From NCBI GenBank assembly GCA_040768585.1, contig JAXGMQ010000001.1, forward strand, positions 1,159,299-1,223,298: a DNA stretch of 64,000 nucleotides, given 5' to 3'. Both the position numbers and the translations under genes were made by a program. The DNA comes from Caldisericia bacterium. Lineage in GTDB: Bacteria; Caldisericota; Caldisericia; JAAYUI01. Below the pieces are notes generated by a model that worked only from the letters and a program-made list of their open reading frames with translations, made no database searches and had not been told where the DNA came from. Of the stretch, positions 5,521-47,480 are shown in pieces. The first letter of the stretch is position 1, and every line of letters starts with the position of its first letter.

Positions 5521-5550
5521 AGAGAAAGAACAAGATTAATATACGATGAG

Positions 5551-5564
5551 TAGATTGATTGAGG
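5551..5564 (+). promoter_or_regulatory. Conserved GATTAAT/GATTGATTGAGG upstream element, about 100 nt before the giant paralog 2 start codon.
   Basis: TAGATTGATTGAGG here is matched by GATTAGATTGATTT / GAGGTTGATTGAAGAG upstream of paralog 3 and by GGATTGATTAATAC / GTGATTGG upstream of paralog 4. All three lie at similar distances (about 65-100 nt) from the ATG. Confidence 0.4.
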
Positions 5565-5652
5565 TAAGAAAGCAAAAGATGGGAAGCTCATCCCGAGCCG
5601 AACAAGGGAACAACGGTCACTTGATTAGTGGTCGATCCAAAGGAGAGGTTAG

Positions 5653-16050: not shown

Positions 16051-16073
16051 TAAGGGATATAAGGATAAGATTT

Positions 16074-16112
16074 CTCTCCCGGATACCTCTTTGTGTTGGT
16101 GTCCGGGAGAGC
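16074..16112 (+). terminator. Hairpin with a 10-bp stem downstream of giant paralog 2, with no U-tract.
   Basis: CTCTCCCGGA (16075-16084) pairs with TCCGGGAGAG (16103-16112), about 21 nt after the stop. It is preceded by ATTTCTCTC, and the same ATTTCTCTC lead-in occurs at 27001. Confidence 0.4.
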
Positions 16113-16124
16113 GAGAGACACATG

Positions 16125-16167
16125 ATTAGATTGATTTCGAAGCGATTAATGAGGTTGATTGAAGAGA
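16125..16167 (+). promoter_or_regulatory. Conserved GATTGATT upstream element pair, before giant paralog 3.
   Basis: GATTAGATTGATTT at 16125-16138 and GAGGTTGATTGAAGAG at 16152-16167. This is the same motif family seen upstream of paralogs 2 and 4. Confidence 0.4.
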
Positions 16168-16222
16168 ACACTAAAGAGGCTAAGTTTGGCCTTAGTGGCT
16201 ATAGTGCAAAAGGAGAGGTCAG

Positions 16223-30100: not shown

Positions 30101-33100
30101 AGCGGTCTTCTTCAGGTTCCAAGAGATGGCTCATACTACGATCCTTACTGGGAAACAGTCTACAGAGACCCAGAGAAACGTGCCTACGCCAACTATGCAA
30201 GGTATGTCTTCGATCCAGTCAATGATCCAAGGTATGATCTGTATGCAACACATTTCTCACACCTCGCCAACTCGTATGACTGCTACGGCAGATGGGAAAG
30301 AACGGTTCAGCCAGAGGATCTTGATATTCAGGCAAACAGAAAATGTCTCACCATCCTAGAGCAGAGATTCCCGAACCTCGTCCTTACGCTTACAAACTGG
30401 GACAACCCGAACGATATTAATGACCCGGCGGACATCAGATTCGCAACAGAGTCGATTCCAGATAGACCACACCGTGTGAACTACAACTGTCGTGGCGCTG
30501 GCGTTAAGTTCCTTTTCACTGCAAACAATACTGATTTCACCGAGAAGTACATTGTTCAGGTCAATGACGACGATACGTTCATCTGCTGGCAGTGGTTTGA
30601 TTATGAGCCACTCAACATGCTTTCACCACTCGACTACCTTATCTACAGAGACCTTGGTAACCCAGGTTGGCCGAGTTCACCGCAGCAGCCAGACCCAAGA
30701 AATTCCAGAGGTCCAGTCAATGACCCACCGCGTCTCCCAACAGATGCTGAGCCAGAATCAGAACTTGAGAGATGCTTTGTTGACGATGTGGACTGCTCTG
30801 GTAAGCAGGCAACCTGTGACATCTGTGGTATAGGTGGCGGCTCGATTGAGGACTTCGTACCGATCGGTTCAGTCACACTCAATGACACATATGGCAATAG
30901 CTACGTTGAATTCATCATCCAGACCTTCGGTGTTCCGACCATGGTCACCGACTACGGATACCTTTCAACAACAGATCCGGGCGGTCAGATGCTTGTTGCC
31001 GTCCTCCCAAGAGAAGCGGATACACCACTCTGGGTGCGTGTAACAGCTGAGCAGACGATATTCAACTTTAACAGTGTCGATGGGCAGCTTTGGCCACCAA
31101 ATGGCCCTGGATTCCTCAACGACTACACGGGTGGTGTGGATTATTGCGGACTTATCAGCTTTGATATTACCCCGCCGGACCCAGACGTGAACTTCACAGA
31201 AGTCACGATGGTCGACCACGCTCTCCAGTATTCGCAGGCCAACTACACTGTCGGTTCAGATTCAGATGGATATCACACCAACCCAGTCTCGCCGCTTGGT
31301 ATGCCGGCACCACAGATCCAGACACCGTACAATCCAATACTTAAAGACCTCACCGAAGAGGTAACCTGTTATCCAGGTGGACAGACTCATCCATTCAGAC
31401 TTGATGGTCCGAACTCCAAGAGGCGCTCAGGCTGGAATGCATATCCCGCAATCCACAGCGAGTGGTACAACGGAACAGATCACTCACAGTTTGTGAAGCT
31501 TGGAACAGAGTTCTTCCCACTTACCGACTATGGTCTGTACTTCATCTTGAAGAACCAGCGTGGTGAACACCTGTCCTTCTCTCCAATCCAGCACTGGGTC
31601 TCACCATATCCAATTAGGTACGATCTCATGATCAAGAGAGTCATTATCGAAGGACCGTTCATGAGACCGAAGTTTATGGATGCAGACAACTCGAACTATC
31701 TCTCCAACAACTACTACAATGGAACTGAGTATCCACCGATCGCTTATGACACGAGTGGTAGACTTGAGATCACAGACCTCAACGTCAACGCATTTGTGCA
31801 GAACTCGCTTTCCTACAGAGGTGGTGACTTCGCCAATGTCACAAGCCCATACATGACGGGTTCAGACCCAGTCAGAAACCAGCTTGTGTATCCAGATGAC
31901 ACCAACATCCCAGAGAATGACTATCTTAGACTACTTGACAGGTCACTTGACTTCACATCGCTTCACTTTGCCAACATTGGTAATAGACCATCTGGTGCCA
32001 ACGATGTCTTCTGTATCGACGAAATTATCCCAGTTAACTACGGAAACATCAGCATTACAGTCGAACTCCAGAATGGTAAGCGTAAGATTTACCAGGATTG
32101 CTGCGAGACAACACCAGTTGACGGCATCAATGTTTGGGGTCTTGATATCCAGGATGCTCCAGATGAAATCGTCGTTGACACAGAGAATGTCATTGAGATA
32201 GGACTTAGAGAATACAACGACATTCAGGTCGTCCAAGAGTGCAACGATGCCCTCGTGTTCTGCTGGCAGGATCGTGGCGTCAAGCAGATTGGATCAGACA
32301 TGAGAGTCGGTGCTGGTGATGGTTGGATTACAAACCCACCACGCAACAGCAACCTTCGAGATAAGGTTTGGCAGTATCTCACCGGCGATGATATCAATGG
32401 TGATGGCAAGATAACATTCAAGGACTTCGAGACTGAGATTCTTGGTACCTATGATATGACAACCAACACATGGCTTGCTGGTATCATTGACGCAAGAACG
32501 TATCAGAGGCAGGATGGAATCTACAGATTCGAGCTTAACGAAACAAATAATTGTATTGTTGACGAGATTGGATTTGACTTCGGTGGTGGTGAGCAGATAG
32601 GCGGAAGGTTCTCTTCAGCAGATCACATCATCAGCATCAACGAAGAACTTCCGATTTGGATTACAGCATACAAGTATGGTGATGACAATAACGACAGAAG
32701 CTTCCAGCCATACTATGAGATCCCACCACAGTCAGAGTTTGGTAAGCCAGGATTCTCACACGAAGTTTATATGGCTGCGCAGAAGTCCGTCAGGGTTGTT
32801 GGTTCGGAGGATCTTGTTGTAGAGATAACACCTGCTGTCCTCACAGCTGGTGTAACTCCTGAGTATGTCGATCCAGATGAGCCATTGACATTTACAGTGT
32901 ACCATCCAGATGGTGATACGAGATTCAACTTCTTTGAAGAAGGAGTACCGGACTACACTGGTGCTTACAAAATCAGAGAATGGGAACAGGTCGCAAACAA
33001 CCTGTTCGAGGATCCACATCCAGACAACAAGTATCACTATGGATATGATTCCGAGCTTCCGCAGTACTACTGGTTGAGAACAGACCTTCACAACAACGAT

Positions 33101-35971
33101 CCGACATCCAATGCAGAGGGAGTTGACAACCACAGACTATTCGCTTCAAGGATTACTGCGATTGACTTCATCGAGTACGACTTCAGCGGTGGTGAAGATG
33201 GTGTATACATCTTCAAGGGATTCTGTGCGAACGATGAGGGTAGTTTCCCGGTTATTATCTACTCACCAGACAGAAAGCATTACGCCAGAGAGACAGTCAA
33301 GATCAAACCACCAAAGGTGGAGTACAAGATCACAAACATCGACGATCCAGATCAGAGAGTGTTTGATCTACCAGGAACACCAGGCGATCCTGAGTTCCTC
33401 ATGACCGCTGCTGATAACAGAGTCTACAAAGTTGATATTACCTGCTACACGCATGACGGCGAGAAGCCACTTATCGGCGCTGCCAAGGGTGTATCAGTCT
33501 GCACAGGCTCAGACAGAGACAACGCAAGATTCACACCAGTCTACACAGCACCATCCTCGTTCCTTACTGGTGAGCCAAGATACGCCATTGGTACCAGAGG
33601 TGATTGGATGCCAGTTGATGGTCAGCCTCTTGGTCAGGATCAGATTTACACCCCACGTATCAGACCACGCCTTGGAATAGACTTTGATGCCGACGGTGTC
33701 GTTGAGGAGTCCAACAGAGAGGTTATCAGACCAACAGCATACACTCACAAAATAGCTCGCATATACATGACCTCATACTACTTCTACTACTTCCCAGGCG
33801 TACGATACCAAGCCACAGGTGGACTTGTTCCAAGCGTTTACTACAACACAAACAACTACGCCTACCCGGACAGATATGACGAAAAGAACTACTACAACCT
33901 GTTCATCTATGGTGATATCTACCCAGACCCAGATTCCACATTTGCTTGGGGACTTGGTGCCATCTATAACTCGTCCCATTACGGCGGATACCTCACAATT
34001 GACGTGAATGATGACGACTTCCTTACCTATGCAGACTCATTGTCACTCGATGAGAGAGGCTCGACCCAGGTCTACGTCTATGCTGAAGATCTTTGCTACT
34101 TCGCTGGCTTCATCGGCGACAACCCATGGACTAACACGAAGTGGGGAGATGTATACGGTGGAATTGACTCCTACCTGTCGAATGTTACAAGTGGATACAG
34201 TGATAGCTTCTATGGAGACCCACATGCTCCGAGAACGATGCAGAGAAGATATGGTTACAGACCACAGGGAGTGAATGTACCGACAGCTTATATTCCTGCT
34301 GCTGATGGCACGTTCAAACTTGACTGGGAGGCATTCCCAAGCAAGGATAACTACGCCAAGATTGAAGCTCCATTTGCGATCGCAAGATCTGCGGAGACAA
34401 GAGAACCATTTGGTCTTATGCTTATGAATCAGAACTGTTATGATCTGATCTATGCGAAAGAAAACCACATACTGTTCAACTTCTACCCAGCATTCTCGAG
34501 CGATCTGCCATTGGGTGAGGGTGCGAGAGTCGACCTTTTGATCTACACATGGGGTGGAACGGATCCAACAAGATCTTATGCGAGAACATACAAATCCGCA
34601 GAAGACCCAGCCGCGACGGAGTGCATGGCGCTTGTAAGGCCGACGGGTGTGGCGACGCGAATGCTCTCAATCGCTTACTACCAGGAGAACACAAGATTTA
34701 GGTTCCCATACGAGTACAGGATTGAAAGAGACCTCGAGAAGAGAAATATCCTTCCATCGTTCGACTCAGTCAGGGGGCTTGAGGTACTTGTTGACTCGGA
34801 AGATGTTCTTAGATCGCAGATCACAGGTACACTCAACATTACAGTCAGAGAGTATGGTTCCAACGCTCCGGCAGGTAACGCTGAGCTCAAGATTGAGGGC
34901 GCTGGTGTATCGCTTCCATCCAAGCGCTGCAACGACAAGGGTCAGGCATCGGTTGTTGTAACACCAACAGAGACTGGAATCATCAAGGTAACAGCAAGTC
35001 TCGAAGGATACGCTGATGGATTCGGTACCATAACGGTCGGCGTTGATACTCAACCGCCAACGGTAACAATTGAAGAACCAACCAACTACGCAGTTGTTGC
35101 TGGCAATTCGGTTGCGCTCAAGGGTGTAACAAAACCAGGTTCGAAGCTCACAGTCAATGGACAGCAGGTTGCAGTCAATCTTAAGGGTGAGTTTGAGTTC
35201 AACGTGAACCTTCAGAACGAGGGCGCTAACACAATCGTTGTCAAGGCAACGTCACCAACAGGCGCGACAACCGTCAGATACGTCACAGTCATCAGAGACA
35301 CTCAGGCTCCAAGCCTTATCATCAATGAGCCAACTGAGATTATTGCAAACGCAACATACTACGACGTCACAGGCAGAGTTGAGCCAGGCTCTAAGGTTAC
35401 AGTTAACGGTGTGGACGCGAAGGTCGTCTTCGATGTTTGGACTCACAGAGTTAACCTCGTCCCAGGCAAGAATGAAGTTGAAGTGACGGCAATCGATGCG
35501 GCAGGTAACACTGTCACCTCCAAGATTGTTCTTGTTAACTACAAGCTTGTGACAATCGAGCTTACCAAGGAAGTCACGACAGCCTACGTAAATGGTGAGA
35601 TGGTACAGCTGACAGCAGCTCCAAGACTCTCGATGGCATCAGGCACATTCATGGTGCCAGCGGGTGACCTCTTCGGTAGCCTCGAGGGCAATGTGGTTAA
35701 TGCCGGTGGCAACCTGTTCAACATTACGCTTGGTGCGAGCACCGCTTCGATTACGCAAGATGGAAAGACTGCCCAGGTCAATGGTGTGGCCAAAGCGCTT
35801 CCAGAAGCTCCGGCAAGAGACGTTGCAACCGGCCAGCTCATGGTGCCCGCAGCTGTCCTCCTTCAGTACATGAATGAGGGTTCAGCTGATGGTGACATTG
35901 AGCCAATACTTGACATCGAGTGGAACCCATCCGCTGGTAGAATGACAATCAGCAGATACTGGATACCATGA
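27149..35971 (+). CDS. Giant secreted protein (2940 aa), paralog 4 of the tandem family.
   Basis: RBS GAAGGAGAG. Signal peptide MRKILTTLLSVALVLGMISTFMPMLSLDNAEAQG. Shared motifs HRIGYDRYGREL, GQLWFDPDGRFNDCRY, NNTQGPY, YPGGQTH, IYQDCC, ECNDALVFCWQDRG, AYKYGDDNNDR and LPQYYWLRTDLHN. C-terminal Ig-like repeats and a CuAO-N1-like module (MVPAGDLFGSLEG...GQLMVPAAVLLQYM). Confidence 0.88.
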   Translation: MRKILTTLLSVALVLGMISTFMPMLSLDNAEAQGSGNTPATMVGNRFHRIGYDRYGRELPDGKMVPWQKVGEVWWGREGFYMPYAVRAVDDPPYSITVPPATAFYSTVVSNETSSHVATLGFGLWTEVWLTVDVDPGDGQTTYKHHWYVILDDYGQLWFDPDGRFNDCRYYGYADPYDVNYMEDDDYTHDNCTDNPRALVDPIVSNNTQGPYILDPDYNPFVNENASMWQFYSPSYALNNVAAPVYNPRIYFWDAEKTGYNTKRLWKLGFADMNDYLAENAVGPAGALCSGVVYEEAANPSNPLYKEYQDWDIDLSLRAFQLNYNPAQFAEAGSEVHAENITLGGNYPDSQVSWAAQAPVAYNFGEFAYRKAGADVMYPTLTGPGTYDTKPVSFVDEADIRLSDIVVTRNGDIRTYPPFTSVIDTGAIGVWEPGDDYDVGTSQWAFSDGVTGTFGRPEYYHDQAIGTNNGGNGGGDGVYSPGEFIYRKALANSGMTVQADDIRLTNVNGYQTNTNRHLPNNPDLLFDTDGMVRAGIMDGDLLIMAEVLNGGCQSPNYDIAVQTDAWIGWRDNGRWMPVEIGYTAAGIRSHFDTTINHFNRVQKNAMLSQNSDGFFVPSTVFHDVQFEERQFGGWSIWLDDGIDNNAAVNQMYACTALDLSDNLEGKETIEQIVGGESLEAWDFDYGRGGVRDDFGELVSFTDTAKVIGPPYGFYDTEGNGFGCHEHLYRDMDSSGAISKGDLRLTDVITYREVGPVSGSMIQYYAGTTVAAGDLDVGEPITYFNQPPQAGNIEFMFYDISHPADGVPRNYEYDPGEDIYLQPIGLTEVDYRSVRATDVEIQGKKYICGTAVSLSQALFVENPVSMISMGNNGLASFMDFEVIPGSIQVEVKVDQEFMVEQTSHVEVRVVPEPTDPDDKYYILIENLPRSSYNNIAETVRTIDRDHLVANFEITPYRGSCDLTGFVQDRKVYVHAIKEETDVSAYSGLLQVPRDGSYYDPYWETVYRDPEKRAYANYARYVFDPVNDPRYDLYATHFSHLANSYDCYGRWERTVQPEDLDIQANRKCLTILEQRFPNLVLTLTNWDNPNDINDPADIRFATESIPDRPHRVNYNCRGAGVKFLFTANNTDFTEKYIVQVNDDDTFICWQWFDYEPLNMLSPLDYLIYRDLGNPGWPSSPQQPDPRNSRGPVNDPPRLPTDAEPESELERCFVDDVDCSGKQATCDICGIGGGSIEDFVPIGSVTLNDTYGNSYVEFIIQTFGVPTMVTDYGYLSTTDPGGQMLVAVLPREADTPLWVRVTAEQTIFNFNSVDGQLWPPNGPGFLNDYTGGVDYCGLISFDITPPDPDVNFTEVTMVDHALQYSQANYTVGSDSDGYHTNPVSPLGMPAPQIQTPYNPILKDLTEEVTCYPGGQTHPFRLDGPNSKRRSGWNAYPAIHSEWYNGTDHSQFVKLGTEFFPLTDYGLYFILKNQRGEHLSFSPIQHWVSPYPIRYDLMIKRVIIEGPFMRPKFMDADNSNYLSNNYYNGTEYPPIAYDTSGRLEITDLNVNAFVQNSLSYRGGDFANVTSPYMTGSDPVRNQLVYPDDTNIPENDYLRLLDRSLDFTSLHFANIGNRPSGANDVFCIDEIIPVNYGNISITVELQNGKRKIYQDCCETTPVDGINVWGLDIQDAPDEIVVDTENVIEIGLREYNDIQVVQECNDALVFCWQDRGVKQIGSDMRVGAGDGWITNPPRNSNLRDKVWQYLTGDDINGDGKITFKDFETEILGTYDMTTNTWLAGIIDARTYQRQDGIYRFELNETNNCIVDEIGFDFGGGEQIGGRFSSADHIISINEELPIWITAYKYGDDNNDRSFQPYYEIPPQSEFGKPGFSHEVYMAAQKSVRVVGSEDLVVEITPAVLTAGVTPEYVDPDEPLTFTVYHPDGDTRFNFFEEGVPDYTGAYKIREWEQVANNLFEDPHPDNKYHYGYDSELPQYYWLRTDLHNNDPTSNAEGVDNHRLFASRITAIDFIEYDFSGGEDGVYIFKGFCANDEGSFPVIIYSPDRKHYARETVKIKPPKVEYKITNIDDPDQRVFDLPGTPGDPEFLMTAADNRVYKVDITCYTHDGEKPLIGAAKGVSVCTGSDRDNARFTPVYTAPSSFLTGEPRYAIGTRGDWMPVDGQPLGQDQIYTPRIRPRLGIDFDADGVVEESNREVIRPTAYTHKIARIYMTSYYFYYFPGVRYQATGGLVPSVYYNTNNYAYPDRYDEKNYYNLFIYGDIYPDPDSTFAWGLGAIYNSSHYGGYLTIDVNDDDFLTYADSLSLDERGSTQVYVYAEDLCYFAGFIGDNPWTNTKWGDVYGGIDSYLSNVTSGYSDSFYGDPHAPRTMQRRYGYRPQGVNVPTAYIPAADGTFKLDWEAFPSKDNYAKIEAPFAIARSAETREPFGLMLMNQNCYDLIYAKENHILFNFYPAFSSDLPLGEGARVDLLIYTWGGTDPTRSYARTYKSAEDPAATECMALVRPTGVATRMLSIAYYQENTRFRFPYEYRIERDLEKRNILPSFDSVRGLEVLVDSEDVLRSQITGTLNITVREYGSNAPAGNAELKIEGAGVSLPSKRCNDKGQASVVVTPTETGIIKVTASLEGYADGFGTITVGVDTQPPTVTIEEPTNYAVVAGNSVALKGVTKPGSKLTVNGQQVAVNLKGEFEFNVNLQNEGANTIVVKATSPTGATTVRYVTVIRDTQAPSLIINEPTEIIANATYYDVTGRVEPGSKVTVNGVDAKVVFDVWTHRVNLVPGKNEVEVTAIDAAGNTVTSKIVLVNYKLVTIELTKEVTTAYVNGEMVQLTAAPRLSMASGTFMVPAGDLFGSLEGNVVNAGGNLFNITLGASTASITQDGKTAQVNGVAKALPEAPARDVATGQLMVPAAVLLQYMNEGSADGDIEPILDIEWNPSAGRMTISRYWIP

Positions 35972-37723: not shown

Positions 37724-39283
37724 CTATTCTCTTGATTCGCCAAAATTATTACGTACGACAAAAACATCGTTCAGGTCGATGATACCGTTGTTATCGAAGT
37801 CGCACTCAAGTTTGAATCCTGGGTTGAAAGAACGCTTCCCGAGGTGTGTGGCAATAATGATGAGATCTGTCCCATCAACCCTACAGTCGAGGTTGCAGTC
37901 ACCCATAATCTGTTTGATAAAAAAGTTGATCCCAAGTTTGTACCTGTAGTTAGGAGTGTCGACGACTATTTCACCAAAGTCCTGGAGTGACAATACGCCC
38001 TTTGAATTGACACTAACGGCGACCGTCTCGGTGTACCCTGGATAGACGACAATCTCTCTTTTGTCGGTTGAGGTGTTTCTGGCGTAGGTGTGCACTCTGG
38101 CAGATATGGGAGAGCTTCCGAGATTGACTAGTCTAATCTCCCGAGTGTAAATCTTCTCAGGGCAGATGATTCCGAAATTCAAATCGCAGGATATTCCGAG
38201 GTAAAGTCCAAAAGGTGATGTTGAATATCTGATGAGTTTGGGGCCGCATGTCACATAGAAATCTGCTTTGTGAGGAACAGCCTGTGAAGTAATATCGCCT
38301 GGTGTGTTTATGGCGTTGTATGCGGAACCAGTGGATTTCTGGACCGGGATTATCTGGCTATTTCTGGTGCAACAGAGGATGATTCTTCCGCACACAGAAA
38401 TATTTGTTGGAGAGAGAGTTTTATTCATCCACGATGTGTCACCTTCGATGCTTTTGCAGAGAATCCCGCTATCGCTCCCAAAGAGGTAGACCCACTTGCA
38501 GTCAGTCACTGCCCCTTTGTTCTTTCCCGTCGGGGTTTTATCACTCCAGAGTTGTCTACAGTCCTCCACCGCAAGCGCAATGCATCCGCCCCTTTCAAGA
38601 ACAGCCACAAACGAGTTGTCGCTTATGGATGTAACACTCTCCACAAAACCAACCGTGGCGCTAGAGCATACAAGCTCCAGAGATTCTGCATCAAAGACGT
38701 GTACTCGCATGTCTCTGCAAGCGATGACCACCCGATTTCCGACAACCGTTGGGGCAGAAACTGGCTCATCAGGGAGTTCCCCGCTCGATTGTATGATGCC
38801 ATTTGTGTCTGCCCTGTAGATATGTGATTTGCTGTTGATGAATAGAGACCTGTCGGATGCCAAGAGACTCTGTGGGTCATCAACCTCGACATTCCACACG
38901 ACTGAATCGCTCGAGATTCTTCTTGCTGTTATTTCCTTGCCATCGAAGGAGATGAAAAGATCATTGAATATGACAGGCACACATGGGCCAGTTATCTTGA
39001 ATGTTCCCAGCTCCTCTTTGGAGTTGGTATGGAACACAACCGCCTCGTTGGCGCATATCGTAAAAATATAATCATTTGATGTCAGAATGTGGTGCCCCTG
39101 AGAGATAGTAACCTCCCAATTGGACAGATAGGGAGGGTGGACAGTCTGGGCACAATATGCCTGTCTACCACTGTTGCCGCCCACATTTGGCCAGAGGCAT
39201 ACGGCCTCCGAGCCACCTAAAACGGCGACACCGAGTGACACAATCAACAGTGCTAGAAGATAAGCTGTAAGTGCCTTCTTCAT
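37724..39283 (-). CDS. Secreted beta-propeller (PQQ-like repeat) protein with a C-terminal type-I dockerin domain.
   Basis: Signal peptide MKKALTAYLLALLIVSLGVAVLGG. The C-terminus has two EF-hand-like dockerin repeats about 33 aa apart: DCNLDCRVDGTDLIIIATHL and DFDNNGIIDLNDVFVVRNNF. The central region has a repeated beta-strand pattern. It is transcribed divergently from the ECF sigma gene. Confidence 0.7.
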   Translation of the reverse strand: MKKALTAYLLALLIVSLGVAVLGGSEAVCLWPNVGGNSGRQAYCAQTVHPPYLSNWEVTISQGHHILTSNDYIFTICANEAVVFHTNSKEELGTFKITGPCVPVIFNDLFISFDGKEITARRISSDSVVWNVEVDDPQSLLASDRSLFINSKSHIYRADTNGIIQSSGELPDEPVSAPTVVGNRVVIACRDMRVHVFDAESLELVCSSATVGFVESVTSISDNSFVAVLERGGCIALAVEDCRQLWSDKTPTGKNKGAVTDCKWVYLFGSDSGILCKSIEGDTSWMNKTLSPTNISVCGRIILCCTRNSQIIPVQKSTGSAYNAINTPGDITSQAVPHKADFYVTCGPKLIRYSTSPFGLYLGISCDLNFGIICPEKIYTREIRLVNLGSSPISARVHTYARNTSTDKREIVVYPGYTETVAVSVNSKGVLSLQDFGEIVVDTPNYRYKLGINFFIKQIMGDCNLDCRVDGTDLIIIATHLGKRSFNPGFKLECDFDNNGIIDLNDVFVVRNNFGESRE

Positions 39284-39408
39284 TTATCCACATTATTTAT
39301 CCTATTTATTGTATTGTCAATCCTCTATTTCTCAGCCTTTTTTGCAATTCTCTAATAATTTCATTAAAATGGTCTGATACTACTTGGTGAACCAGGGGTG
39401 GTGGTTGG

Positions 39409-40044
39409 GTGTATTTTACCCGAAGTTCGAGCACAAGCCCTTTTGTTTCGCTAACCTTGGGACAGATGGATAGGAAAACAGAAAAGAAAACGATTCTAGC
39501 GGCGCAGAAGGGTGACGCCGAAGCCTTCGAGAAGCTTTACAATGCATTCAAGCTGGAGTTGTACAGATCAGCGCTGCTCATTATGAAACATCCCGCCGAT
39601 GCTGAGGATGCCGTTGCTGAGACCTTCATCAAGACATTCAGGGCGATCGACAGGTTTGACACGAAGTATCCAATGAGACCTTGGTTACATCGGATACTTC
39701 GGAATGAGTGCAACAACATCTTCAAAAAGAAGAGAACAAAGACTGTACTGTACGACGACTTTGGCACAGATTGGAAAGAGTCAGTGGCTGATAGAGACTC
39801 GAAATGCACATCGACGCTCATCATTGAGGACGAGGAGGATTCGAGACTCATGGAACTCATCGATTCGATGAACGATAGCCACAGAGAGGTTCTGATTCTC
39901 CACTACTACGACGGACTCGATCTAATTAAAATCGCTGAAATCATCGGTGTCCCCATCGGTACCGTGAAGTCGCGACTCTTCCACGCCAGAAAACAGCTTT
40001 TGAAGTCTATCGAAGAGAATGAAGTGATATTGGATAGAGATTGA
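39409..40044 (+). CDS. ECF-family RNA polymerase sigma-70 factor.
   Basis: Region 2 (AFEKLYNAFKLELYRSALLIMKHPADAEDAVAETFIKTFRAIDRFD...RPWLHRILRNECNNIFKK) and region 4 (REVLILHYYDGLDLIKIAEIIGVPIGTVKSRLFHARKQL) are both recognisable. The ORF begins at a GTG at 39409. An in-frame ATG at 39466 (MDRKTEKK...) is an alternative start. Confidence 0.85.
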   Translation: MYFTRSSSTSPFVSLTLGQMDRKTEKKTILAAQKGDAEAFEKLYNAFKLELYRSALLIMKHPADAEDAVAETFIKTFRAIDRFDTKYPMRPWLHRILRNECNNIFKKKRTKTVLYDDFGTDWKESVADRDSKCTSTLIIEDEEDSRLMELIDSMNDSHREVLILHYYDGLDLIKIAEIIGVPIGTVKSRLFHARKQLLKSIEENEVILDRD

Positions 40045-40064
40045 TACAGAGAGAGACAGGGAAT

Positions 40065-42326
40065 ATGAGACACCTAACTACAGAACAGATTGCCGCCTAC
40101 CAGGCAGGAGGGATGAGAGCAAGCGAAAAGTTTTTCGCCTTCATCCACCTGCTTGTTTGCGGCGAGTGCAGGGCTGCTCTGAAAAAAGAGAAGAGACTTT
40201 TCAAGAGCACAAACACGAAACTCAAGCGAATTACGAGCCACAGCTTCCCGACAAACCTGATGGATGCGAGAGTGGGAGCAGTCATCTCACAGATAGCTGC
40301 TAACACTGCTCCGCAGGTGAGGTTTTTTGGCAAGTGGGCGACGGTGGCAGCGCTTGTTGTGGTGATGCTTGCGTCATCCTACTCGGTATTCTTCTTTGCC
40401 CCGATCGTGGGAGCAGCGAGAGAGACCCCTGCCCAGGCGTTTGTATCGTCAAAAATAATTCCAATCTACAACGAGATTGGCAACGTGGTTCCTGACATGT
40501 CAGACATCGCGAAGAAAGAGGTGTTCTTCAGGGCGATGTGCGACACACTGATGATTTGCACATCAGAGAGAATAAAGTGGATGTACAGCGAAGGTTACAC
40601 CCTGGAGGAGGTGTATTTCGCAAGTGTGGTGGCAAGGGTTATCGGCGCATCGACAGAATCGGTGCTGCCTCTTCTCAAGCAGGACAAGACGTGGGGGCAG
40701 ATTTTCTCCGAACTCAACATTCCTTTTTCACAGCAACTTGAGATAGAAGAGGGTGTCAAGCAAACAATCAAACAGACTGAGACCGCTATGGACAATCAGA
40801 AAACCTTCTCCGTTCCAGTCCGAAAAAATACCGATGGCTCAATCTCATCGGTTGTTGATATTCCTGAGGATGTCGCCAAAAAAATTCCGGAAGGCAAAGA
40901 GGCGACCGTCGAGATCGATAGAACCGGCAAGCCAACCGGCAACGTTGAGGTGCTTGAGAGACCGACTTACTACACCGGCAACATCGTATCAGTTGAATCA
41001 GGTTATGAGATTTTCACAGTGGATACCGAGAACGGCGATACCGTCACAGTCAGGGTCACACCTGAGACAAACATGAGACGCTATGGAGACTACTTCTTCA
41101 GAACAGAGCTTCGACAGAATCAGCTCTGCGTAGTCAATGGCGTCTGGAGTGAGGGCGTTCTATTCGCTGATTTTGTCGATATCAAAGAGCCTATCAGAAG
41201 CACAAATTTTGAGGGTGTTGTTATTGATATGGACGGTTCGTCAATCACAGTCACAGGATTTGGTGCTCCTCTTAAAAAGAATGAAAACTCAAACATAACA
41301 GGCACGCTTGAGATAGGCTCAAAGGTTGAATTTACGGCCTTTGGCAATGACTATGATGGCTTCCAGATAGAGTGGATGAAGGCTTCACCGAAGATTCAGC
41401 CCACTCCTACTCCCGCTCAACCCAGGGCGACTGTCGAAGGGATTGTTGTGGGCATCGATGAGATCGAGAAGCTTATCCTTCTTGATGACGGCACATCGAT
41501 TTTCTACAACAAGCTGACAGAATTTGCTGGAGGAATGCCCTGGGTTGGCTCTGTTATCGCCAGCGAGGCGTATGAGGTAAACACCAACCTTGATAACAAG
41601 TTCCAAGATCAGGCAATCAAAATCACGATATCAGCACCGAAGACAACGGATACCTTTGAGTATGCAAAGAAGCTTGACTCAATCGTGTGTCTGAGTGGGT
41701 GTAACTGGATACGACCAGAGGGTGTCACGAGAATCACCCTTGAGGGTGTTGATACTTCGTTCCTCATCATCCCGGATACGGTCGGTCATGATCAGGTGAC
41801 TCCAAACCGCAAGGGTTATCTGCTTATCCTTTCAGGCAACACGGTTGATGGCGTAAACATGATAACAAAGGTGAGTGTTGTTGACCCGAAGAGCATAGTC
41901 GTAAAGAGTGGCGTCATCGTCTCACACGAGGGCATGAAGGTGAAACTCGACGACGGTACAGAGATAACACTCAGGTCATTCACCGCAGGCGCAACCGGGG
42001 TTGCAAAGGACGCGAAGGCAGAGTTCAGGTGCTGGCAGACAGAAGGCAAACTCACAGCGCTTGAGGTGACACTGGTCGAGGAGACAAAGAAAACCATCGA
42101 GACTCCCTGGACAAGTGTTGTCTCCTTTGATGGAACAAAGCTTGTTCTTGAGGAAGGTCTGGTTGTTGAATTTGATGAGAACACAGTGGTTGTGACAGCC
42201 GTCCTCAAGGAAGAGATCGACTCATCCCAGATAACGATGGGTTCTAGGGTAATCTGCGTGTACACCGATAATGGTGACGGTAGAAAGATTGCCGTAAAGG
42301 TGATGGTATACATACAGGCTCCATGA
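40065..42326 (+). CDS. Anti-sigma factor. N-terminal ZAS-type zinc-finger motif, one TM helix, and a large (~650 aa) extracytoplasmic beta-rich domain.
   Basis: It immediately follows, and slightly overlaps, the sigma gene. FIHLLVCGECRAAL fits the HxxxCxxC anti-sigma motif. TM segment WATVAALVVVMLASSYSVFFFAPIVGAA. The likely start is the ATG at 40065 (MRHLTTEQ) after GAGAGACAGGGAAT; the ORF track begins at an in-frame TTG at 40041. Confidence 0.7.
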   Translation: MRHLTTEQIAAYQAGGMRASEKFFAFIHLLVCGECRAALKKEKRLFKSTNTKLKRITSHSFPTNLMDARVGAVISQIAANTAPQVRFFGKWATVAALVVVMLASSYSVFFFAPIVGAARETPAQAFVSSKIIPIYNEIGNVVPDMSDIAKKEVFFRAMCDTLMICTSERIKWMYSEGYTLEEVYFASVVARVIGASTESVLPLLKQDKTWGQIFSELNIPFSQQLEIEEGVKQTIKQTETAMDNQKTFSVPVRKNTDGSISSVVDIPEDVAKKIPEGKEATVEIDRTGKPTGNVEVLERPTYYTGNIVSVESGYEIFTVDTENGDTVTVRVTPETNMRRYGDYFFRTELRQNQLCVVNGVWSEGVLFADFVDIKEPIRSTNFEGVVIDMDGSSITVTGFGAPLKKNENSNITGTLEIGSKVEFTAFGNDYDGFQIEWMKASPKIQPTPTPAQPRATVEGIVVGIDEIEKLILLDDGTSIFYNKLTEFAGGMPWVGSVIASEAYEVNTNLDNKFQDQAIKITISAPKTTDTFEYAKKLDSIVCLSGCNWIRPEGVTRITLEGVDTSFLIIPDTVGHDQVTPNRKGYLLILSGNTVDGVNMITKVSVVDPKSIVVKSGVIVSHEGMKVKLDDGTEITLRSFTAGATGVAKDAKAEFRCWQTEGKLTALEVTLVEETKKTIETPWTSVVSFDGTKLVLEEGLVVEFDENTVVVTAVLKEEIDSSQITMGSRVICVYTDNGDGRKIAVKVMVYIQAP

Positions 42327-44290
42327 AAAAAATACTAGCTGCTGCTATTGCTCTCTCACTGGTTGTGCCGACTCTCGCAGTTGGCGCGACCAGTTTGAAT
42401 ATTGAGGTCAACCCCTCGCTAGCCACACTTGGCTGCGAGGTAAAAATCACTGCAACACTTGATGAACCCGCTCCTGAGGCGGCAAAGGTTGAGGTGAGAT
42501 TTCCCGTGGTCATGAAGGTGCCAGGGAAGATTGATGGTGGACTGATAACGGTCAATGAAATGCCTGTTGACACCATCACTGTTGAGAAGAATGTCCTTAC
42601 CTTTGATATCCCAGAACCAATTGAAGACCACGCGAATCTAGAAATTCTCATCCCAACGGCGTGTGGCATTGCAAACCCGTTTGAGGGTGGCAGCTATGTG
42701 ATAGAAATTGACATCGATGGAGTCAGACAAAGAACCAAGTTTGAGGTGGGCAGAATACTTGAAGAATCCCCAATAGTTGTGTTGTCCCCTGACCTTGCCG
42801 GAAAACCCGTCAACCTCATGGTACAGATTCCAGCATCAGAACACCTTCAGCTAGTGCAAGGTGATGCCGTTAAGATAACGCTTCCTGCGGAATTTATTAT
42901 GCCAGAGCTTCCTGACCTTGAGTATGTCACACTCTCTGGCGAGACGCCCCCAGTTGTTGATATGGATGGTAACACCCTCACGGTTGTCGTGGGCTCAGAT
43001 TTACCCATAAATAAGCCTATCACGCTCATTTTTGGAACAGAATTTGGTTTGGTACTTCCCCTCTGGCCGGACACCTACAAGCTAAATTTGGAGATTCCTG
43101 GCAAGCTAGAGGAGACATCGACTGATCTCTTCCAGGTGAGACCACTTAAACCAACTGTTTATGCCTCGGTTGATCCGCCGGAGCCTGAGAACAAGTGGTA
43201 CACGAAACCCCCAACGATCGAACTTCTCAGCGAGGTTGAGAGAGATATCTACTACAATTGGAACTACGAAAGAAAAACCCTTTACGCCGAGAGTTTTACC
43301 GCTCCAGAGGGTGTCAATAACCTCACTTATGTCGGCAGGATAAAAGATGGTGGCTGGGAGGCTGTTTTGACCCGCACCTTCAGGGTTGACTCAAACCCGC
43401 CAATTGTCGGTGATGTGGTGCGTTTCACCAATAAAGCTGAACTAGACTTAATATACAACATCATCGATGTGTCTCCCTGCGAGTCTGGGATTGATGGCTA
43501 TGAAACCGAGTCTCTTGGTGACAACAAATTCAGGACAACCCTTGAGCTTGCGCCTGGCGACAACAGCTTTGTTTTCTGGGCGGTTGACTCGTGCGGCAGA
43601 AAGGTCGAGACCCCCAAAACCATCACACTCGATAACACTCCACCAGCCCTTGATATACTCTCCCCGTCGTCTGGATCGGTCATATGTGGAAGGATAGTTA
43701 GAATTAACGGAGTAACAGAGCCAGGGGCGAAGATTACTGTCGATGGTTCAAACATCCAGGTCGACTCATCGGGCTATTTTATCGCTGTTGTTTCGCCAAC
43801 TGAGGAAGGTCCGGTCAATATAAAGGTTGTATCTCAGGATTTGGCAGGCAACACCCAAGAAGCAGTGCTGCCAATCCTCTATATTTCGGGGACTTCCATC
43901 TCGATGACAATCGGGAAGAAAGACGCTGTTTTTGCCGGAGTTGAAAAGAAGCTTCTAGTTGCTCCATACAAGGACTTTGATGTCACCTACATTCCAGCCC
44001 CAACTCTTCTTAAAGCTCTCAATTACGAGCTTGTCAAAGAGGAGACTGGGGATGGCTGGATGATAAAAGACCTTGTCGGGGATGAGAGGATGTATCTGTC
44101 TCCAGGCGATGTGAACATAGTCAGACAGGGAAGTTCCGGTGCATTCGAGATAAGTTTGTCAAACGCCCCTCAGCTTTCTGAGGATGTTTTGTGCGTACCC
44201 CTGGAATTCACGACGAAAATATTGGATTTGAACCCAAGTGAGTTTGCGGGTGGAGAAATAGTCATAAAATTCTGTCCCAGAGGGGAATAA
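42323..44290 (+). CDS. Secreted protein with Ig-like/beta-sandwich repeats; function unknown.
   Basis: Its ATG overlaps the anti-sigma stop (ATGA), which suggests translational coupling. Signal peptide MKKILAAAIALSLVVPTLAVGAT. Invasin/Ig-like segments are present, for example PPALDILSPSSGSVICGRIVRINGVTEPGAKITVDG. Confidence 0.7.
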   Translation: MKKILAAAIALSLVVPTLAVGATSLNIEVNPSLATLGCEVKITATLDEPAPEAAKVEVRFPVVMKVPGKIDGGLITVNEMPVDTITVEKNVLTFDIPEPIEDHANLEILIPTACGIANPFEGGSYVIEIDIDGVRQRTKFEVGRILEESPIVVLSPDLAGKPVNLMVQIPASEHLQLVQGDAVKITLPAEFIMPELPDLEYVTLSGETPPVVDMDGNTLTVVVGSDLPINKPITLIFGTEFGLVLPLWPDTYKLNLEIPGKLEETSTDLFQVRPLKPTVYASVDPPEPENKWYTKPPTIELLSEVERDIYYNWNYERKTLYAESFTAPEGVNNLTYVGRIKDGGWEAVLTRTFRVDSNPPIVGDVVRFTNKAELDLIYNIIDVSPCESGIDGYETESLGDNKFRTTLELAPGDNSFVFWAVDSCGRKVETPKTITLDNTPPALDILSPSSGSVICGRIVRINGVTEPGAKITVDGSNIQVDSSGYFIAVVSPTEEGPVNIKVVSQDLAGNTQEAVLPILYISGTSISMTIGKKDAVFAGVEKKLLVAPYKDFDVTYIPAPTLLKALNYELVKEETGDGWMIKDLVGDERMYLSPGDVNIVRQGSSGAFEISLSNAPQLSEDVLCVPLEFTTKILDLNPSEFAGGEIVIKFCPRGE

Positions 44291-44294
44291 GATT

Positions 44295-47200
44295 ATGAAA
44301 CGTTTTGTTGCGCCACTGCTTGCCGCTGTTTTTTTCTTCGCTGGTGTGTCGGTGTCAAAGGCTGTATGTAAGGTCGACGTCTACAGTGTTGACGTCAATC
44401 CCGCGGTGTCTCTGGCGAAGGCTTGCTATACGGTCAGTTTTCATATTGAGTGTGCCATGGTGGAGGGCGAGACGTTTGAGGTTCATCTTCCAAGGGACTC
44501 TGAGACGCCGTATGGCTGCCGAACGTGTGACGTTAACATAGACGGCGACTACAAGCACAGGTACGACGTTGAGGGGAATGTGGTAAGGATTCAACTCACG
44601 AGGGGTTTGAGCGCTGGCAGGCATTATTTTCACATCTGCAACGTCACAAATCCCAGCAGCAAAGGGCCACACGTTGTCAGTATCGTGTCCTCCGCCGGGG
44701 TTTTTACCTCAAGACCTTTCAATTTTGCAGACACGGCAATTTCAATCCCAAAGGTCGAAGTGAACCCCGACTATGTCAAGGCGTGTGCTGAATATGAGAT
44801 TACTTTCAAAACATCATCCGATGCCTCAACCGGTTGCGGGTGTTCGAGAAGAACTGTTATATATGTGACATTCCCAAAAAACTTTGTATTCCCCTACGAT
44901 ATTGACCCGCAGTTTGTGCTGGTGAATGGCAGGCCGGCTGATTCGGTCGGTATAATTGACAAGACACTCGTCATCACATCAAGCAGTAAGTTTGTTGCTG
45001 GACAGACCATTAAAATCAAGATTCTAAAAGGTGCTGGTGTCATAAACCCAGAAACCCCTGGGTGGTATTCGCTGAATGTCTACACCTCGGATGACAGAAT
45101 ATCTATCAACAGCGAGAGGTTCTACATCAGACCGTCAACGGTTACAAGAGCCAAGGTGACGCTCGATGACCCTTACACCTGCTCAAAGTCAGGTTTTGTC
45201 GTTGAGTTTATGACGGGCCCCTACGGTCAGATAAAAAAAGGGTCGAAGATTGAACTTATCCTCCCGCCATCATTTGACGTGCCTGATTTTATTCCCGCTG
45301 AGAATCTGTCAGTCAATGACATGCCTGTCATGTCAGAGTCAAGCATCAAATCCAACAATATCGACGGCTGGTCTCAGATTGCGGTGCTCTCGCCTGTTGA
45401 TATTGGGTCTGAGTCAAAGGTTGTGATTATCGTTCTACCAGGCGCTATGATAGCCTTGCCAGACACTCCATCCTATGATTACTCGATCGACGTAAGGACA
45501 GCAACAGAACCAAACAGGGTGCCATCGCTTCCCTTCAGTGTCGACCGTTCGAGGCTTAGAAACGTCAAGCTGACCGCTACTCCCTCCTATGTCTCGCTTC
45601 CTGCGGTTATTCAGGTTGCATTCAGGCTTGGCGGGTGCGGTGATTTGACCTCTGGAATCGACACAATCACTGTGCAGTTTGATGAACTGTTCTGGTTCCC
45701 AGACTCAAAGCTCATGACTGACATAAAGATCAATGGAGTCCCCGTTGACAGACTCGTCATGGTATCCGGCAAACAGATAACAATCTCCCCTCCCAATGAT
45801 ATCCCAGGCGACGAGTGGGTTACAGTTGAGTTTGGAGAAGGTTGTGGTATCAGAAATCCTTCCAAAGCAGGCGAACCTCAGAAGGTGAAGGTGTGGACAA
45901 CAAGAGAGCGAGATGCCTCTGTTTCAAACATCATCCTCTTTGCCACAACTAAAATATCTGGGGTAGCTGTCAGTCTTTCAAAACCCCAAACAGGCAAGTA
46001 TTCGTCCTGCGACATCACCTTTGTCTCAGGTTCAGCTGGAGCGCTGAAGGCAGGCTCACAGCTTCTGCTCAGATTTCCTGAGGGATTTGACTTCAAGGGG
46101 CCGGTCTCGACCCACACCATATTGGTTAACGAAACCAGATGCCGGAGGGTGAGACTCACTGAAAATACGTTGGAACTAACAACCGGCTTGGATATCGAGG
46201 CAGGCACTCAGGTGGGTGTGTCAGTATCGTCAGATGCAAACCTGAGACTGCCAGATGAACCGAGTTACTATCAAATCGAGGTTGCCACCGAGGCTGAACC
46301 AGAGTTTGTGCTGTCGCAGAGGTTCCCAATTGCTGATAAGATTCAATTTGAGTATAAGGTCACACCTGATGAGCCTGATGGGATTGATGAGTGGTATGTC
46401 ACACATCCAACCGTTGAGCTCAGGGCTTTCAACTCGCTCGATGAATTTGCCCAGATTGAGCTTGATATCAACTTTGATGTAAGACCATACAATGGTTCGT
46501 TTGAGATTGATGACGGGTTTACCGTCATAAAGGCTGTCGCAACTGACAAGTTTGGCAACGTGTCAGAACCGCTTGTGCTGAGTTTCGATGTCGACACAAA
46601 CCCGCCAACATTTGAACCTGAATCTGGCACTGTTTACTCAAGAGCCATGTATCACTCAGAGATTGTTGAGATTGATGAACTCAATGACGTTGAGATTGAA
46701 TATGACGAAACTGAGGGTGTGACAGTCGAAAGACAACGGGTAGCCGAACTTGTGAAGGTTTCCTGCAAGGTAGAGACTGAACAAACAAAAACGGTTGAGA
46801 TAACAGCCACCGACGAGGCTGGAAACAGCAACACCTGGGAGCGAATCGTTGTTTTTGATTGGACGGAGCCGATGTTGGAGCTGCCTGATAGGATTACAAC
46901 CGATGAATCGGAGATCACAATCTCTGGAAAAACAGAATCCGGTGCAAGCGTTGTCTGTGATGATGAGATAATAATTTGTGACGATGAGGGCAACTTCACG
47001 CACACCGTCAGTGTCAGTGATGGTTTCTCAAGGTTTTTTTTCACGGCAAAAGATAGGGCTGGAAACTCAAGCACAAAGGTGCTTGCTGTCGAGGCTAATC
47101 TTCAGATTGTGGTGGTTCTGACAATTGGAGAAACCGCGGCAACAATCAATGATGTGCCAACCGAGATTGGTTCAAATCCTGTCTACCTCTCATCCGGCAA

Positions 47201-47477: not shown

Positions 47478-47480
47478 CTG

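Follow-up and report, generated by a model that had tools for sequence, protein, structure and literature searches.

What does a dockerin do at the end of a secreted beta-propeller protein when no cohesin is recognisable in the DNA around it? The question is raised by a gene of a Caldisericia bacterium whose 519-residue product is identical to an NCBI record named 'PQQ-binding-like beta-propeller repeat protein [Caldisericia bacterium]'. We analysed this gene together with the 64-kb stretch of DNA that surrounds it (hereafter the window), which includes a divergent ECF sigma factor operon and a series of giant surface-protein genes (Table 1).

Table 1. Features of the window, with positions counted from its first nucleotide and residues numbered along the 519-residue protein.
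Feature	Position	Strand	Basis
Three more giant surface-protein genes (1795 aa, 3465 aa, 947+2661 aa)	56..26975	+	Pfam; Glucodextran_B/Cu_amine_oxidN1 C-terminal tail
Adjacent convergent giant surface protein, 2940 aa, Cadherin-like + Glucodextran_B + Cu_amine_oxidN1 end	27149..35971	+	Pfam
Propeller-Ig-dockerin gene, 519 aa	37724..39283	-	ORF listing; stop codon 37724-37726
Dockerin module, residues 458-519, with two Ca-loop/helix repeats at 37763-37900	37727..37912	-	Dockerin_1, 2y3n_B, model helices
Ig-like beta-sandwich, residues 362-457, ASH/PapD/HYDIN_VesB type	37913..38200	-	Pfam + AF2
Eight-bladed beta-propeller, residues 52-355, BamB/PQQ_2-like fold	38219..39130	-	PQQ_2 + AF2 + Foldseek
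Predicted Sec-type signal peptide, residues 1-27, MKKALTAYLLALLIVSLGVAVLGGSEA	39203..39283	-	Read from sequence; model helix 2-25
Predicted sigma70-type promoter of the propeller-dockerin gene, TTGACA-17-AATAAT	39292..39320	-	Consensus scan 11/12; -10 ends 8 nt before ATG
Candidate ECF-type promoter, TGAACC-N17-GTATTT, towards the sigma gene	39388..39416	+	Conserved blocks
ECF sigma factor, 192 aa from ATG 39466 (longest ORF from GTG 39409)	39466..40044	+	Sigma70_r2, r4_2, TIGR02937
Anti-sigma factor, 761 aa, N-terminal H-x3-C-x2-C zinc motif, large extracytoplasmic part	40041..42326	+	Orthologs, weak profile matches
Rest of the ECF operon: 655-aa and 1060-aa Cu_amine_oxidN1-tailed multi-Ig surface proteins, 652-aa GT2 glycosyltransferase	42323..49439	+	Pfam

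From its N-terminus, the protein consists of a signal peptide, an eight-bladed propeller of the BamB/PQQ_2 kind, an Ig sandwich of the ASH/PapD type, and a C-terminal dockerin. Its AlphaFold model has an overall pLDDT of 82 and a pTM of 0.76. Every member of the family alignment has a signal peptide, and the protein is probably secreted by the Sec pathway; in the model, the helix of the signal peptide is followed by a low-confidence linker. The propeller passes the PQQ_2 cutoff of Pfam (30.0 bits vs 27.6), comprises about 31 strands with pLDDT of 82-95, and its top Foldseek matches are structures of BamB (E=2e-16, TM 0.72-0.74 normalised to the target) together with designed eight-bladed propellers. 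PQQ-dependent dehydrogenases match the quinoprotein profile PF01011 and have a catalytic domain of some 550-600 residues. Here, PF01011 has no match at E<=1 and the propeller spans about 300 residues, which speaks against an enzyme of this type. With only non-catalytic PQQ_2 matches, this small size, and BamB and designed propellers as the best folds, the propeller is non-enzymatic. The strands of the Ig sandwich extend across the whole domain in the model (pLDDT 84-94). The corresponding profile, HYDIN_VesB_CFA65-like_Ig, is below threshold in this protein (17.7 bits) and in the relatives P0004 and P0008 (both 23.8), and reaches its cutoff of 25.5 only in the relative P0006 (26.5).

The protein shares with BamB (YfgL) an eight-bladed fold and, probably, the character of a non-catalytic scaffolding propeller of the cell envelope. 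Given the fold and PQQ_2 matches, and the fact that JGI and NCBI names of some relatives say BamB, one could ask if it is BamB itself, i.e., the outer-membrane protein assembly lipoprotein. The sequence evidence largely refutes this identity. The BamB equivalog models TIGR03300 and NF008351 give 26.0 bits vs 285.2 and 24.2 vs 423, i.e., they are short by more than 250 bits, and the protein is only 11-15% identical in sequence to structures of BamB. Unlike the lipoprotein BamB, the family has no conserved lipobox cysteine at the end of the signal peptide (Cys29 varies in the alignment of eight family sequences), and it carries the additional Ig and dockerin modules. Furthermore, the phylum's type species, Caldisericum exile, has an unexplained outer-membrane-like envelope but yielded no detectable BamA (PMC4104836). 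We regard an assignment to BamB as extremely improbable.

The C-terminal module is a genuine and separate dockerin. The two Asp-rich repeats that the first-pass annotation had read as Ca-binding are both present, at residues 462-474 (DCNLDCRVDGTDL, with the loop DCNLDCRVDGTD) and at residues 495-507 (DFDNNGIIDLNDV, with the loop DFDNNGIIDLND). Both loops have D or N at positions 1, 3, 5, 9 and 12, and these are invariant in the family except for positions 3 and 5 of loop 2, which are D or N. The first-pass annotation had staked its reading on a match to the Dockerin_1 profile and on the repeats lying outside the propeller blades, and the reading withstood both. The profile match is borderline (residues 461-513, E=9.5e-5, 23.0 bits vs a gathering threshold of 22.9, i.e., +0.1 bit), and all five relatives scored, at 25-40% identity, also pass (P0003, 28.2 bits; P0004, 36.8; P0006, 24.0; P0007, 29.3; P0008, 28.1). 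The model and the Pfam coordinates concur in placing the repeats in a distinct terminal module, structurally separate from the propeller and the sandwich, with one helix after each Ca loop (471-479 and 504-512); this is the region of lowest confidence in the model (pLDDT 55-82). A phmmer search of PDB sequences aligned residues 456-518, covering both repeats, to the Cel48 dockerin 2y3n_B (E=3.2e-6). This chain is from Pseudobacteroides cellulosolvens; another dockerin of the kind is that of Xyn10B (1OHZ chain B).

In line with the type I-like dockerins of cellulosomal enzymes (PF00404), the module consists of two segments in tandem, of about 22 residues and with a 12-residue Ca loop before a helix in each; it totals about 60 residues and occupies the C-terminus of a secreted protein. 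The dockerin probably binds Ca2+. It differs from canonical dockerins at position 6 of loop 1, which is usually Gly and is here a Cys that is invariant in the family; this may point to a Cys-containing 'clasped' dockerin subtype. Since the putative recognition positions 10-11 differ between the repeats (G-T in one vs L-N in the other), a symmetric dual-binding mode does not seem evident from the sequence.

Is there a cohesin to receive it? The Pfam searches gave no cohesin match in any protein of the window, be it among 21 selected long ORFs at E<=0.01 (20 with 150 aa or more, and the sigma factor in its 192-aa form, scanned separately) or among the nine surface proteins of the window at E<=10. 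This agrees with the first-pass annotation, which had recognised no obvious cohesin there. Ortholog profiles were made for the 655-aa and 1060-aa surface proteins, the anti-sigma factor and the 330-aa neighbour; searched with hmmsearch against PDB sequences, they revealed no cohesin either. The AlphaFold model of the 655-aa protein, the one conserved neighbour that was modelled, is a chain of beta-sandwiches resembling the Ig chains of S-layers and adhesins, and lacks a cohesin-like domain. The first-pass annotation had taken the dockerin to imply a cohesin-bearing scaffold somewhere in the genome. Such an implication is not supported, as cohesins and dockerins are also found in species that make no cellulosome, according to what PMC6487960 cites from Peer et al. 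2009.

The protein might still be one of many clients of a classical cellulosome-like system, plugged into a scaffoldin with multiple cohesins whose gene is in another part of the genome. Such a system was proposed for Ca. Stygibacter (Cloacimonadota), in which several enzymes with dockerins were identified along with a scaffoldin of 3,755 aa that bears cohesins in tandem (PMC8542988). Ca. Stygibacter is also an uncultured anaerobic lineage outside Firmicutes having signal-peptide proteins with a C-terminal dockerin, including non-enzymatic passengers tied to the cell envelope, and dockerin/cohesin systems were inferred in other uncultured phyla (PMC8542988). The best alignment of our dockerin being with a cellulosomal one is in agreement with this hypothesis. 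However, Pfam identified no glycoside hydrolase or CBM, and no cohesin, in 64 kb of surface-protein genes, and the passenger of the dockerin, a propeller with an Ig domain, is non-enzymatic, unlike those of cellulosomal dockerins. Contrary to Ca. Stygibacter, neither a cohesin nor a second dockerin protein was found in the available Caldisericia sequence. The paired-loop pattern occurs once in the six-frame translation of the window, and when we scanned about 373 kb (the window and all retrieved loci, nearly all from Caldisericia), paired dockerin loops turned up in Caldisericia DNA in the propeller-dockerin gene only; multiple dockerin-bearing enzymes sharing a scaffold were not found there. 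The family motif D[CVA]NLDCxVD is present at one place only in the complete 2.23-Mb chromosome OY771555.1, where dockerins with other loop sequences would escape the search; this is suggestive of a one-to-one pairing rather than of many clients. Altogether, we consider a cellulosome-like system quite improbable.

All named members of the family are from Caldisericia. L014, the one locus that belongs to a complete genome, yielded a single copy, and so did each of the other loci. They are compact proteins, of about 510-530 aa, with PQQ_2 scores of 26-45 bits. Within them, the dockerin is the most conserved part: its mean pairwise identity of 0.48 exceeds those of the Ig domain (0.31) and the propeller (0.27), and it accounts for half of the invariant columns of the eight-sequence alignment (16 of 32 fall within residues 461-515). 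The comparison with a homolog that is 80% identical gives a pN/pS of 0.15 for the whole protein and of 0.085 for the dockerin, the lowest of all regions. These values matter for the hypothesis of an orphan dockerin, i.e., a module lacking a dedicated protein partner and acting as a Ca2+-stabilised terminal cap, or engaged in self-association or glycan contact. The failure to detect cohesins in the window or the conserved neighbours, and the occurrence of dockerin-like modules in organisms without cellulosomes noted above, are both consistent with it. Yet, strong conservation of the dockerin in an otherwise fast-evolving protein is more readily explained by a specific interaction surface than by a passive cap, and we find the orphan hypothesis unlikely. 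Among the closest dockerin-only matches, a single one has a named member in its cluster, from a Crenarchaeota MAG.

The fusion of a dockerin to a PQQ-like propeller in place of a glycoside hydrolase had been regarded as atypical in the first-pass annotation. The fusion is real, and it has precedents. Many dockerins of R. flavefaciens are on non-GH or unknown modules (PMC2930009), and our exhaustive homolog search uncovered unrelated proteins in which a PQQ propeller is followed by CARDB/Ig and finally by Dockerin_1 (P0024 and P0089, and by eye P0014, P0085 and P0140). These proteins have the same succession of signal peptide, PQQ_2-type propeller, Ig-like sandwich and C-terminal dockerin as the Caldisericia family, to which they are not detectably orthologous. 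They differ from it by their strongly repetitive PQQ_2/ACSF4 propellers (187-444 bits) and extra NosD and PKD modules, whereas the Caldisericia family is compact, divergent, and has its own conserved gene neighbourhood. We found no papers on dockerins in Caldisericota or on PQQ-propeller dockerins.

This neighbourhood, when complete, comprises the giants, the ECF operon and the GT2 gene, and it is complete in four lineages, i.e., half of them. An ortholog of the 2940-aa giant, 53-57% identical, occupies the same position in four other lineages, and orthologous giants of 3544-3578 aa adjoin a 2994-aa giant in L007, L008 and L010. Every giant of the window has C-terminal Glucodextran_B and Cu_amine_oxidN1 domains. 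Proteins with PF07833 in Desulfotomaculum are surface-exposed or cell-wall associated and linked to cell-wall hydrolases (PMC4137172). The giants are plausibly attached to the surface, and to this extent their initial description is in agreement with our results. It had also endowed them with dockerin-like loops and made them candidate scaffolds, and neither idea is upheld: each has at most one isolated EF-hand-like loop (residues 1748-1762 in the 2940-aa giant), they have no match to Dockerin_1 or Cohesin at E<=10, and the conserved neighbour that we modelled has no cohesin-like domain. The 1.75-kb gap between the 2940-aa giant and the propeller-dockerin gene (35972-37723) contains no gene remnant detectable by tblastn. 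Its sole Rfam match, to His_leader, is below threshold (34.5 bits vs 49); we took it as a chance match and discarded the presence of an RNA.

Four lineages lack the ECF operon and the giants near the family gene, and they are the closest ones in sequence. In this second kind of neighbourhood the convergent gene encodes a 330-aa ASH/PapD Ig repeat protein with no homolog in the window. The closest relatives (35-40% identity) being devoid of the ECF context, we suspected displacement by a paralog. We rejected it because the identities of all genes of the locus scale together and the propeller-dockerin gene, together with that of the anti-sigma factor, is the fastest evolving of the locus. At every locus sampled, the family gene is beside secreted proteins with a Cu_amine_oxidN1 tail, and this module is the only element that blastp found in common between the two kinds of neighbourhoods. 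A shared neighbour was rejected as the partner of the dockerin. The adjacency to Cu_amine_oxidN1 proteins could be a coincidence, should these genomes encode them in large numbers. One may also conceive a lineage-specific dockerin-receptor pair, where a receptor other than a canonical cohesin, for instance the Cu_amine_oxidN1 tail that the giants carry or one of their beta-sandwich modules, would mount the conserved propeller on these envelope-building proteins; we give this scenario a low probability.

The divergent operon is that of an ECF sigma factor, as first annotated: besides Sigma70_r2 and r4_2, the sigma70-ECF model TIGR02937 scores 92.9 bits vs a threshold of 42.9. The length of 192 aa is the one given by gene callers in other samples. 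The anti-sigma gene overlaps that of the sigma factor by 4 nt, and its product has weak matches to the anti-sigma factors RseA and DdvA and residues H36, C40 and C43 invariant among orthologs. The operon is kept in synteny in L006, L010, L011 and L016. The propeller-dockerin protein could be functionally tied to this pair, either by belonging to the regulon or by serving the anti-sigma factor (761 aa) as ligand or co-sensor outside the cytoplasm. The divergent arrangement has indeed been kept in four lineages despite protein identities of 26-29%, the two proteins are the fastest-evolving ones of the locus, and there is a precedent in C. thermocellum, where anti-sigma factors are wired to cellulosome genes (PMC12484212). 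However, the promoters do not suggest co-regulation. The propeller-dockerin gene is probably transcribed from its own near-consensus sigma70-type promoter, whose -35 TTG and A/T-rich -10 are kept in position in four other lineages, and no ECF-type promoter was found upstream of it on its own strand. The ECF-type motif has GGTTCA and AAATAC blocks (read on the minus strand) that are invariant in five lineages, has no other occurrence in the window, and its single plus-strand site faces the sigma gene, of which it may be the autoregulatory promoter. In addition, the four lineages nearest in sequence lack the ECF operon nearby and the anti-sigma profile has no cohesin-like match. We consider a functional tie to the sigma/anti-sigma pair very unlikely.

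These results lead us to favour another reading: the propeller-dockerin protein is most likely a surface-tethered binding platform, neither a part of a cellulosome nor BamB. The propeller would provide the platform, with the Ig domain as a spacer, and the dockerin would most likely be a Ca2+-dependent protein-protein plug. The plug would fix the propeller on another component of the Caldisericia envelope, serving surface architecture and not a polysaccharide-degrading cellulosome. The partner is neither a cohesin that its sequence would reveal in the window nor one that the fold would reveal in the neighbour that was modelled. As no partner was found, we infer the tethering purely from the behaviour of dockerins elsewhere, where the structuring of the cell surface was proposed earlier as a role of non-cellulosomal dockerins (PMC2930009). 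Taken as a whole, a secreted non-enzymatic propeller plugged by its dockerin onto an envelope component is the best explanation, with roughly even chances of being right.

There are earlier examples of dockerins that are not part of cellulosomes, some of them attached to propellers. For cellulosome biology, the family adds one more non-cellulosomal dockerin lineage and leaves current concepts unchanged. If the dockerin has a lineage-specific, non-cohesin receptor on the giants, the propeller-dockerin gene would mark a new kind of system for assembling the cell surface and give access to the composition of the outer layer of Caldisericia. The Caldisericota are barely studied and the type of their envelope is unresolved. 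In this context, a propeller-dockerin protein present across the class offers an entry point into the organisation of their envelope, for which the dockerin could serve as bait.

The reverse-strand gene encodes a protein identical to the NCBI entry 'PQQ-binding-like beta-propeller repeat protein [Caldisericia bacterium]'; across public assemblies, contigs carrying it occur in 35 blocks. The first-pass annotation had placed two calcium-binding dockerin repeats at its C-terminus, and this assignment holds. The match to the Pfam dockerin profile is above the cutoff by a narrow margin, so we sought independent support. D/N occupies positions 1, 3, 5, 9, and 12 of each loop, residues 456-518 align over both repeats with the Cel48 dockerin 2y3n_B (E=3.2e-6, phmmer against PDB sequences), and all five relatives at 25-40% identity exceed the Dockerin_1 cutoff (24.0-36.8 bits). 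The paired loop pattern occurs once across the six reading frames of the window. The AlphaFold model, computed from an 8-sequence family alignment (mean pLDDT 82.3, pTM 0.76), places a separate terminal module after the propeller and the beta-sandwich, so the Asp-rich repeats lie outside the propeller blades. The dockerin finding withstood the two refuting conditions set at first reading, and is real and well delimited.

Features of the propeller-dockerin gene, its product and the adjacent promoters
Feature	Position	Strand	Details
Propeller-dockerin ORF	37724-39283	-	519 aa
Signal helix	residues 2-25		AlphaFold model
Propeller	residues 52-355		AlphaFold model
PQQ_2	residues 176-293		Pfam, 30.0 bits vs cutoff 27.6
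Separate beta-sandwich	residues 362-457		AlphaFold model
HYDIN_VesB Ig-like	residues 368-435		weak Pfam match
Dockerin_1	residues 461-513		Pfam, 23.0 bits vs cutoff 22.9, E=9.5e-5; borderline
Terminal module	helices 471-479 and 504-512		AlphaFold model
Putative sigma70-type promoter	39320-39292	- (gene's strand)	TTGACA-17-AATAAT; 11/12 consensus matches
ECF-type promoter candidate	39388-39416	opposite to dockerin gene	TGAACC-N17-GTATTT; remaining invariant blocks of the intergenic alignment

An exhaustive search across 1.84 billion cluster representatives yielded 7 proteins at E<=1e-30: the query cluster, a single 263-aa fragment, and five relatives that are full-length (509-532 aa) and whose alignment includes the C-terminus. 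All those with a named organism belong to Caldisericia or Caldisericales. Scanning species-representative genomes for the motif D[CVA]NLDCxVD added four full-length members, all from Caldisericia, and gave one copy in the complete 2.23-Mb chromosome OY771555.1. Within the family, residues 461-515 hold 16 of the 32 invariant alignment columns, mean pairwise identity is 0.48 in the dockerin, 0.31 in the Ig domain, and 0.27 in the propeller, and pN/pS against an 80%-identical homolog is 0.085 in the dockerin and 0.15 overall. When the window is compared with three other loci carrying the family (L006, L010, and L011), identities are 27-29% for the propeller-dockerin protein, 29-32% for the anti-sigma factor, 39-40% for the 655-aa surface protein, 56-57% for the giant, and 59-61% for the ECF sigma, making the first two the fastest-evolving genes of the locus. 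Since the dockerin is the best conserved part of a fast-evolving protein, the attachment module is the part most tightly held by selection.

Position 6 of loop 1, a Gly in canonical dockerins, is an invariant Cys (C467) in the Caldisericia family. Among the dockerins recovered, this residue recurs, together with a second Cys at the very end of the chain (GDxNxDCxV[DN]...FGxxC), in unrelated proteins outside the family (P0056, P0060, P0075, P0081, P0103, P0117, and P0137); one member of the P0056 cluster comes from a Crenarchaeota MAG. Their co-occurrence suggests a putative disulfide clasp between the two residues, whose purpose would parallel that of the intramolecular clasp described for the ScaA dockerin of R. 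flavefaciens (PMC3821032). The C-terminal Cys is kept in four family branches and lost in that of the window, which has C463 in its place; the window protein also has C494.

The best solved matches to the propeller are BamB structures (Foldseek E=2e-16, target-normalised TM 0.72-0.74, 11-15% identity), together with designed eight-bladed propellers. While the fold is common to both, it is extremely improbable that the protein is a BamB: it scores 26 vs 285 and 24 vs 423 with the NCBIfam equivalog models, the family signal peptides are of the ordinary Sec type with no conserved lipobox Cys, and no BamA could be detected in the phylum's type species, Caldisericum exile, whose outer-membrane-like envelope is unexplained (PMC4104836). 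There is also no sign of a quinoprotein dehydrogenase, with no match to PF01011 and a propeller of only ~300 aa. In the best-supported mechanism, to which we give an even chance, propeller and Ig domain would form a secreted binding platform that the dockerin would hold on the Caldisericia envelope.

No cohesin had been recognised in the window at first reading, and Pfam agrees: neither Cohesin nor Dockerin_1 was found in the other long ORFs scanned (E<=0.01) or in the nine large surface proteins (E<=10). Profiles built from orthologs of four neighbours (the 655-aa, 1060-aa, anti-sigma, and 330-aa proteins) retrieved no cohesin from the PDB at E<=10. The 655-aa protein is modelled as a chain of beta-sandwiches (mean pLDDT 80) resembling complement/MG chains, the S-layer proteins Sap, EA1, and SbsB, and the adhesins Bap/PrgB, with no cohesin in either set of top Foldseek matches (best 50 and best 60). 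An orphan dockerin is unlikely, and it is even less likely that the protein is the cellulosome-like client of a scaffoldin encoded elsewhere in the genome. The giants had been credited with dockerin-like loops; these are lone loops of the EF-hand type that score far under the threshold (e.g., residues 1748-1762 of the 2940-aa protein). There is only a small likelihood that the giant envelope proteins bear a receptor of a non-cohesin type.

The gene was correctly described as divergent from an ECF sigma operon, an arrangement kept in four other lineages (L006-L008/L016, L010, and L011/L012). There, the genes for GT2, the ~1080-aa and ~650-aa proteins, the anti-sigma factor, and the ECF sigma lie on one strand, the propeller-dockerin gene is divergent from the ECF genes, and giants of ~2990 and ~3550 aa are convergent. 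All surface proteins end in Glucodextran_B and Cu_amine_oxidN1 (Pfam); proteins with PF07833 were detected at the surface of Desulfotomaculum reducens cells, and cell-wall hydrolases commonly carry this domain (PMC4137172). The four lineages closest in sequence (L009 and L013-L015, 35-40% identity) have no ECF operon or giants nearby. Upstream, they keep homologs of the 172-aa membrane protein of the window, and downstream three Cu_amine_oxidN1 proteins; a convergent Ig protein of the ASH/PapD type (330 aa) is kept as well. Only the Cu_amine_oxidN1 module is common to both neighbourhood types. At 52220-54370, the window has four tandem paralogs encoding small membrane proteins (155-172 aa, 25-28% mutual identity, no Pfam family). 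Where the ECF operon is lacking, homologs of the first of these paralogs are found a few kb upstream of the dockerin gene, which suggests that the two types correspond to a single chromosomal region that either has or lacks this operon.

The -35 TTG and the A/T-rich -10 of the putative sigma70-type promoter keep their position in four other lineages. At 39284-39320, the -10 element stops just 8 nt short of the ATG, and AAATGAAG does not vary between lineages; a leaderless or almost leaderless mRNA is possible. The ECF-type candidate lies upstream of ATG 39466, the probable true sigma start, and occurs once in the window, with no second site. Given a putative sigma70-type promoter of its own and a single ECF motif facing sigma, the divergent placement need not mean that the gene belongs to the ECF regulon, and, despite the shared arrangement, a functional tie to the ECF/anti-sigma pair is improbable.

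Other features of the window deserve mention. No credible gene lies in the 1.75 kb (35972-37723) that separate the 2940-aa giant from the dockerin gene; GC there is ~0.41 vs ~0.47-0.50 in the flanks, the equivalent gap in L006 is ~385 bp, and identity is 99.9-100% across four other samples of the species. Neither family nor neighbour genes have left a remnant in this stretch, and its sole RNA match is a sub-threshold His_leader (34.5 bits vs 49). The overlapping ORFs at 16223-19066 (947 aa, with signal peptide) and 18990-26975 (2661 aa, without) look like fragments of one giant gene (~3,580 aa) that is interrupted near 18990-19066, either by a frameshift or by an error in the assembly; in orthologous loci, a single protein of 3,544-3,578 aa occupies this position. 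Three tandem genes at 55814-62351 have products of 707-734 aa whose N-termini are lipoprotein-like (…SCGGDYGM…) and whose C-termini match the PQQ_2 propeller weakly, below threshold. From ~52 kb on, GC falls from ~0.47 to 0.37-0.39 and GC skew is strongly positive. An Mrr-type restriction endonuclease gene (49444-50406, Mrr_cat, E=5e-21) is flanked by the GT2 gene and an NHL-repeat/Cu_amine_oxidN1 protein.

Finally, the fusion of a dockerin to a propeller was initially deemed atypical, which does not stand. The exhaustive search of cluster representatives also recovered unrelated proteins with a PQQ propeller, then CARDB/Ig, then a dockerin (P0024 and P0089, with 25.9 and 41.3 bits for Dockerin_1), and P0014, P0085, and P0140 have obvious dockerin C-termini scoring below the E<=0.001 listing. 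In R. flavefaciens, 118 dockerin proteins contain regions of unknown function and others carry LRR, serpin, or transglutaminase modules, and the authors raised cell-surface structuring as a possible role (PMC2930009). Cohesins and dockerins also occur in species making no cellulosome (PMC6487960, citing Peer et al. 2009), and a dockerin/cohesin surface system was inferred in Cloacimonadota (PMC8542988). The 519-aa protein is a new, lineage-specific case of an already known class of non-cellulosomal dockerin proteins.
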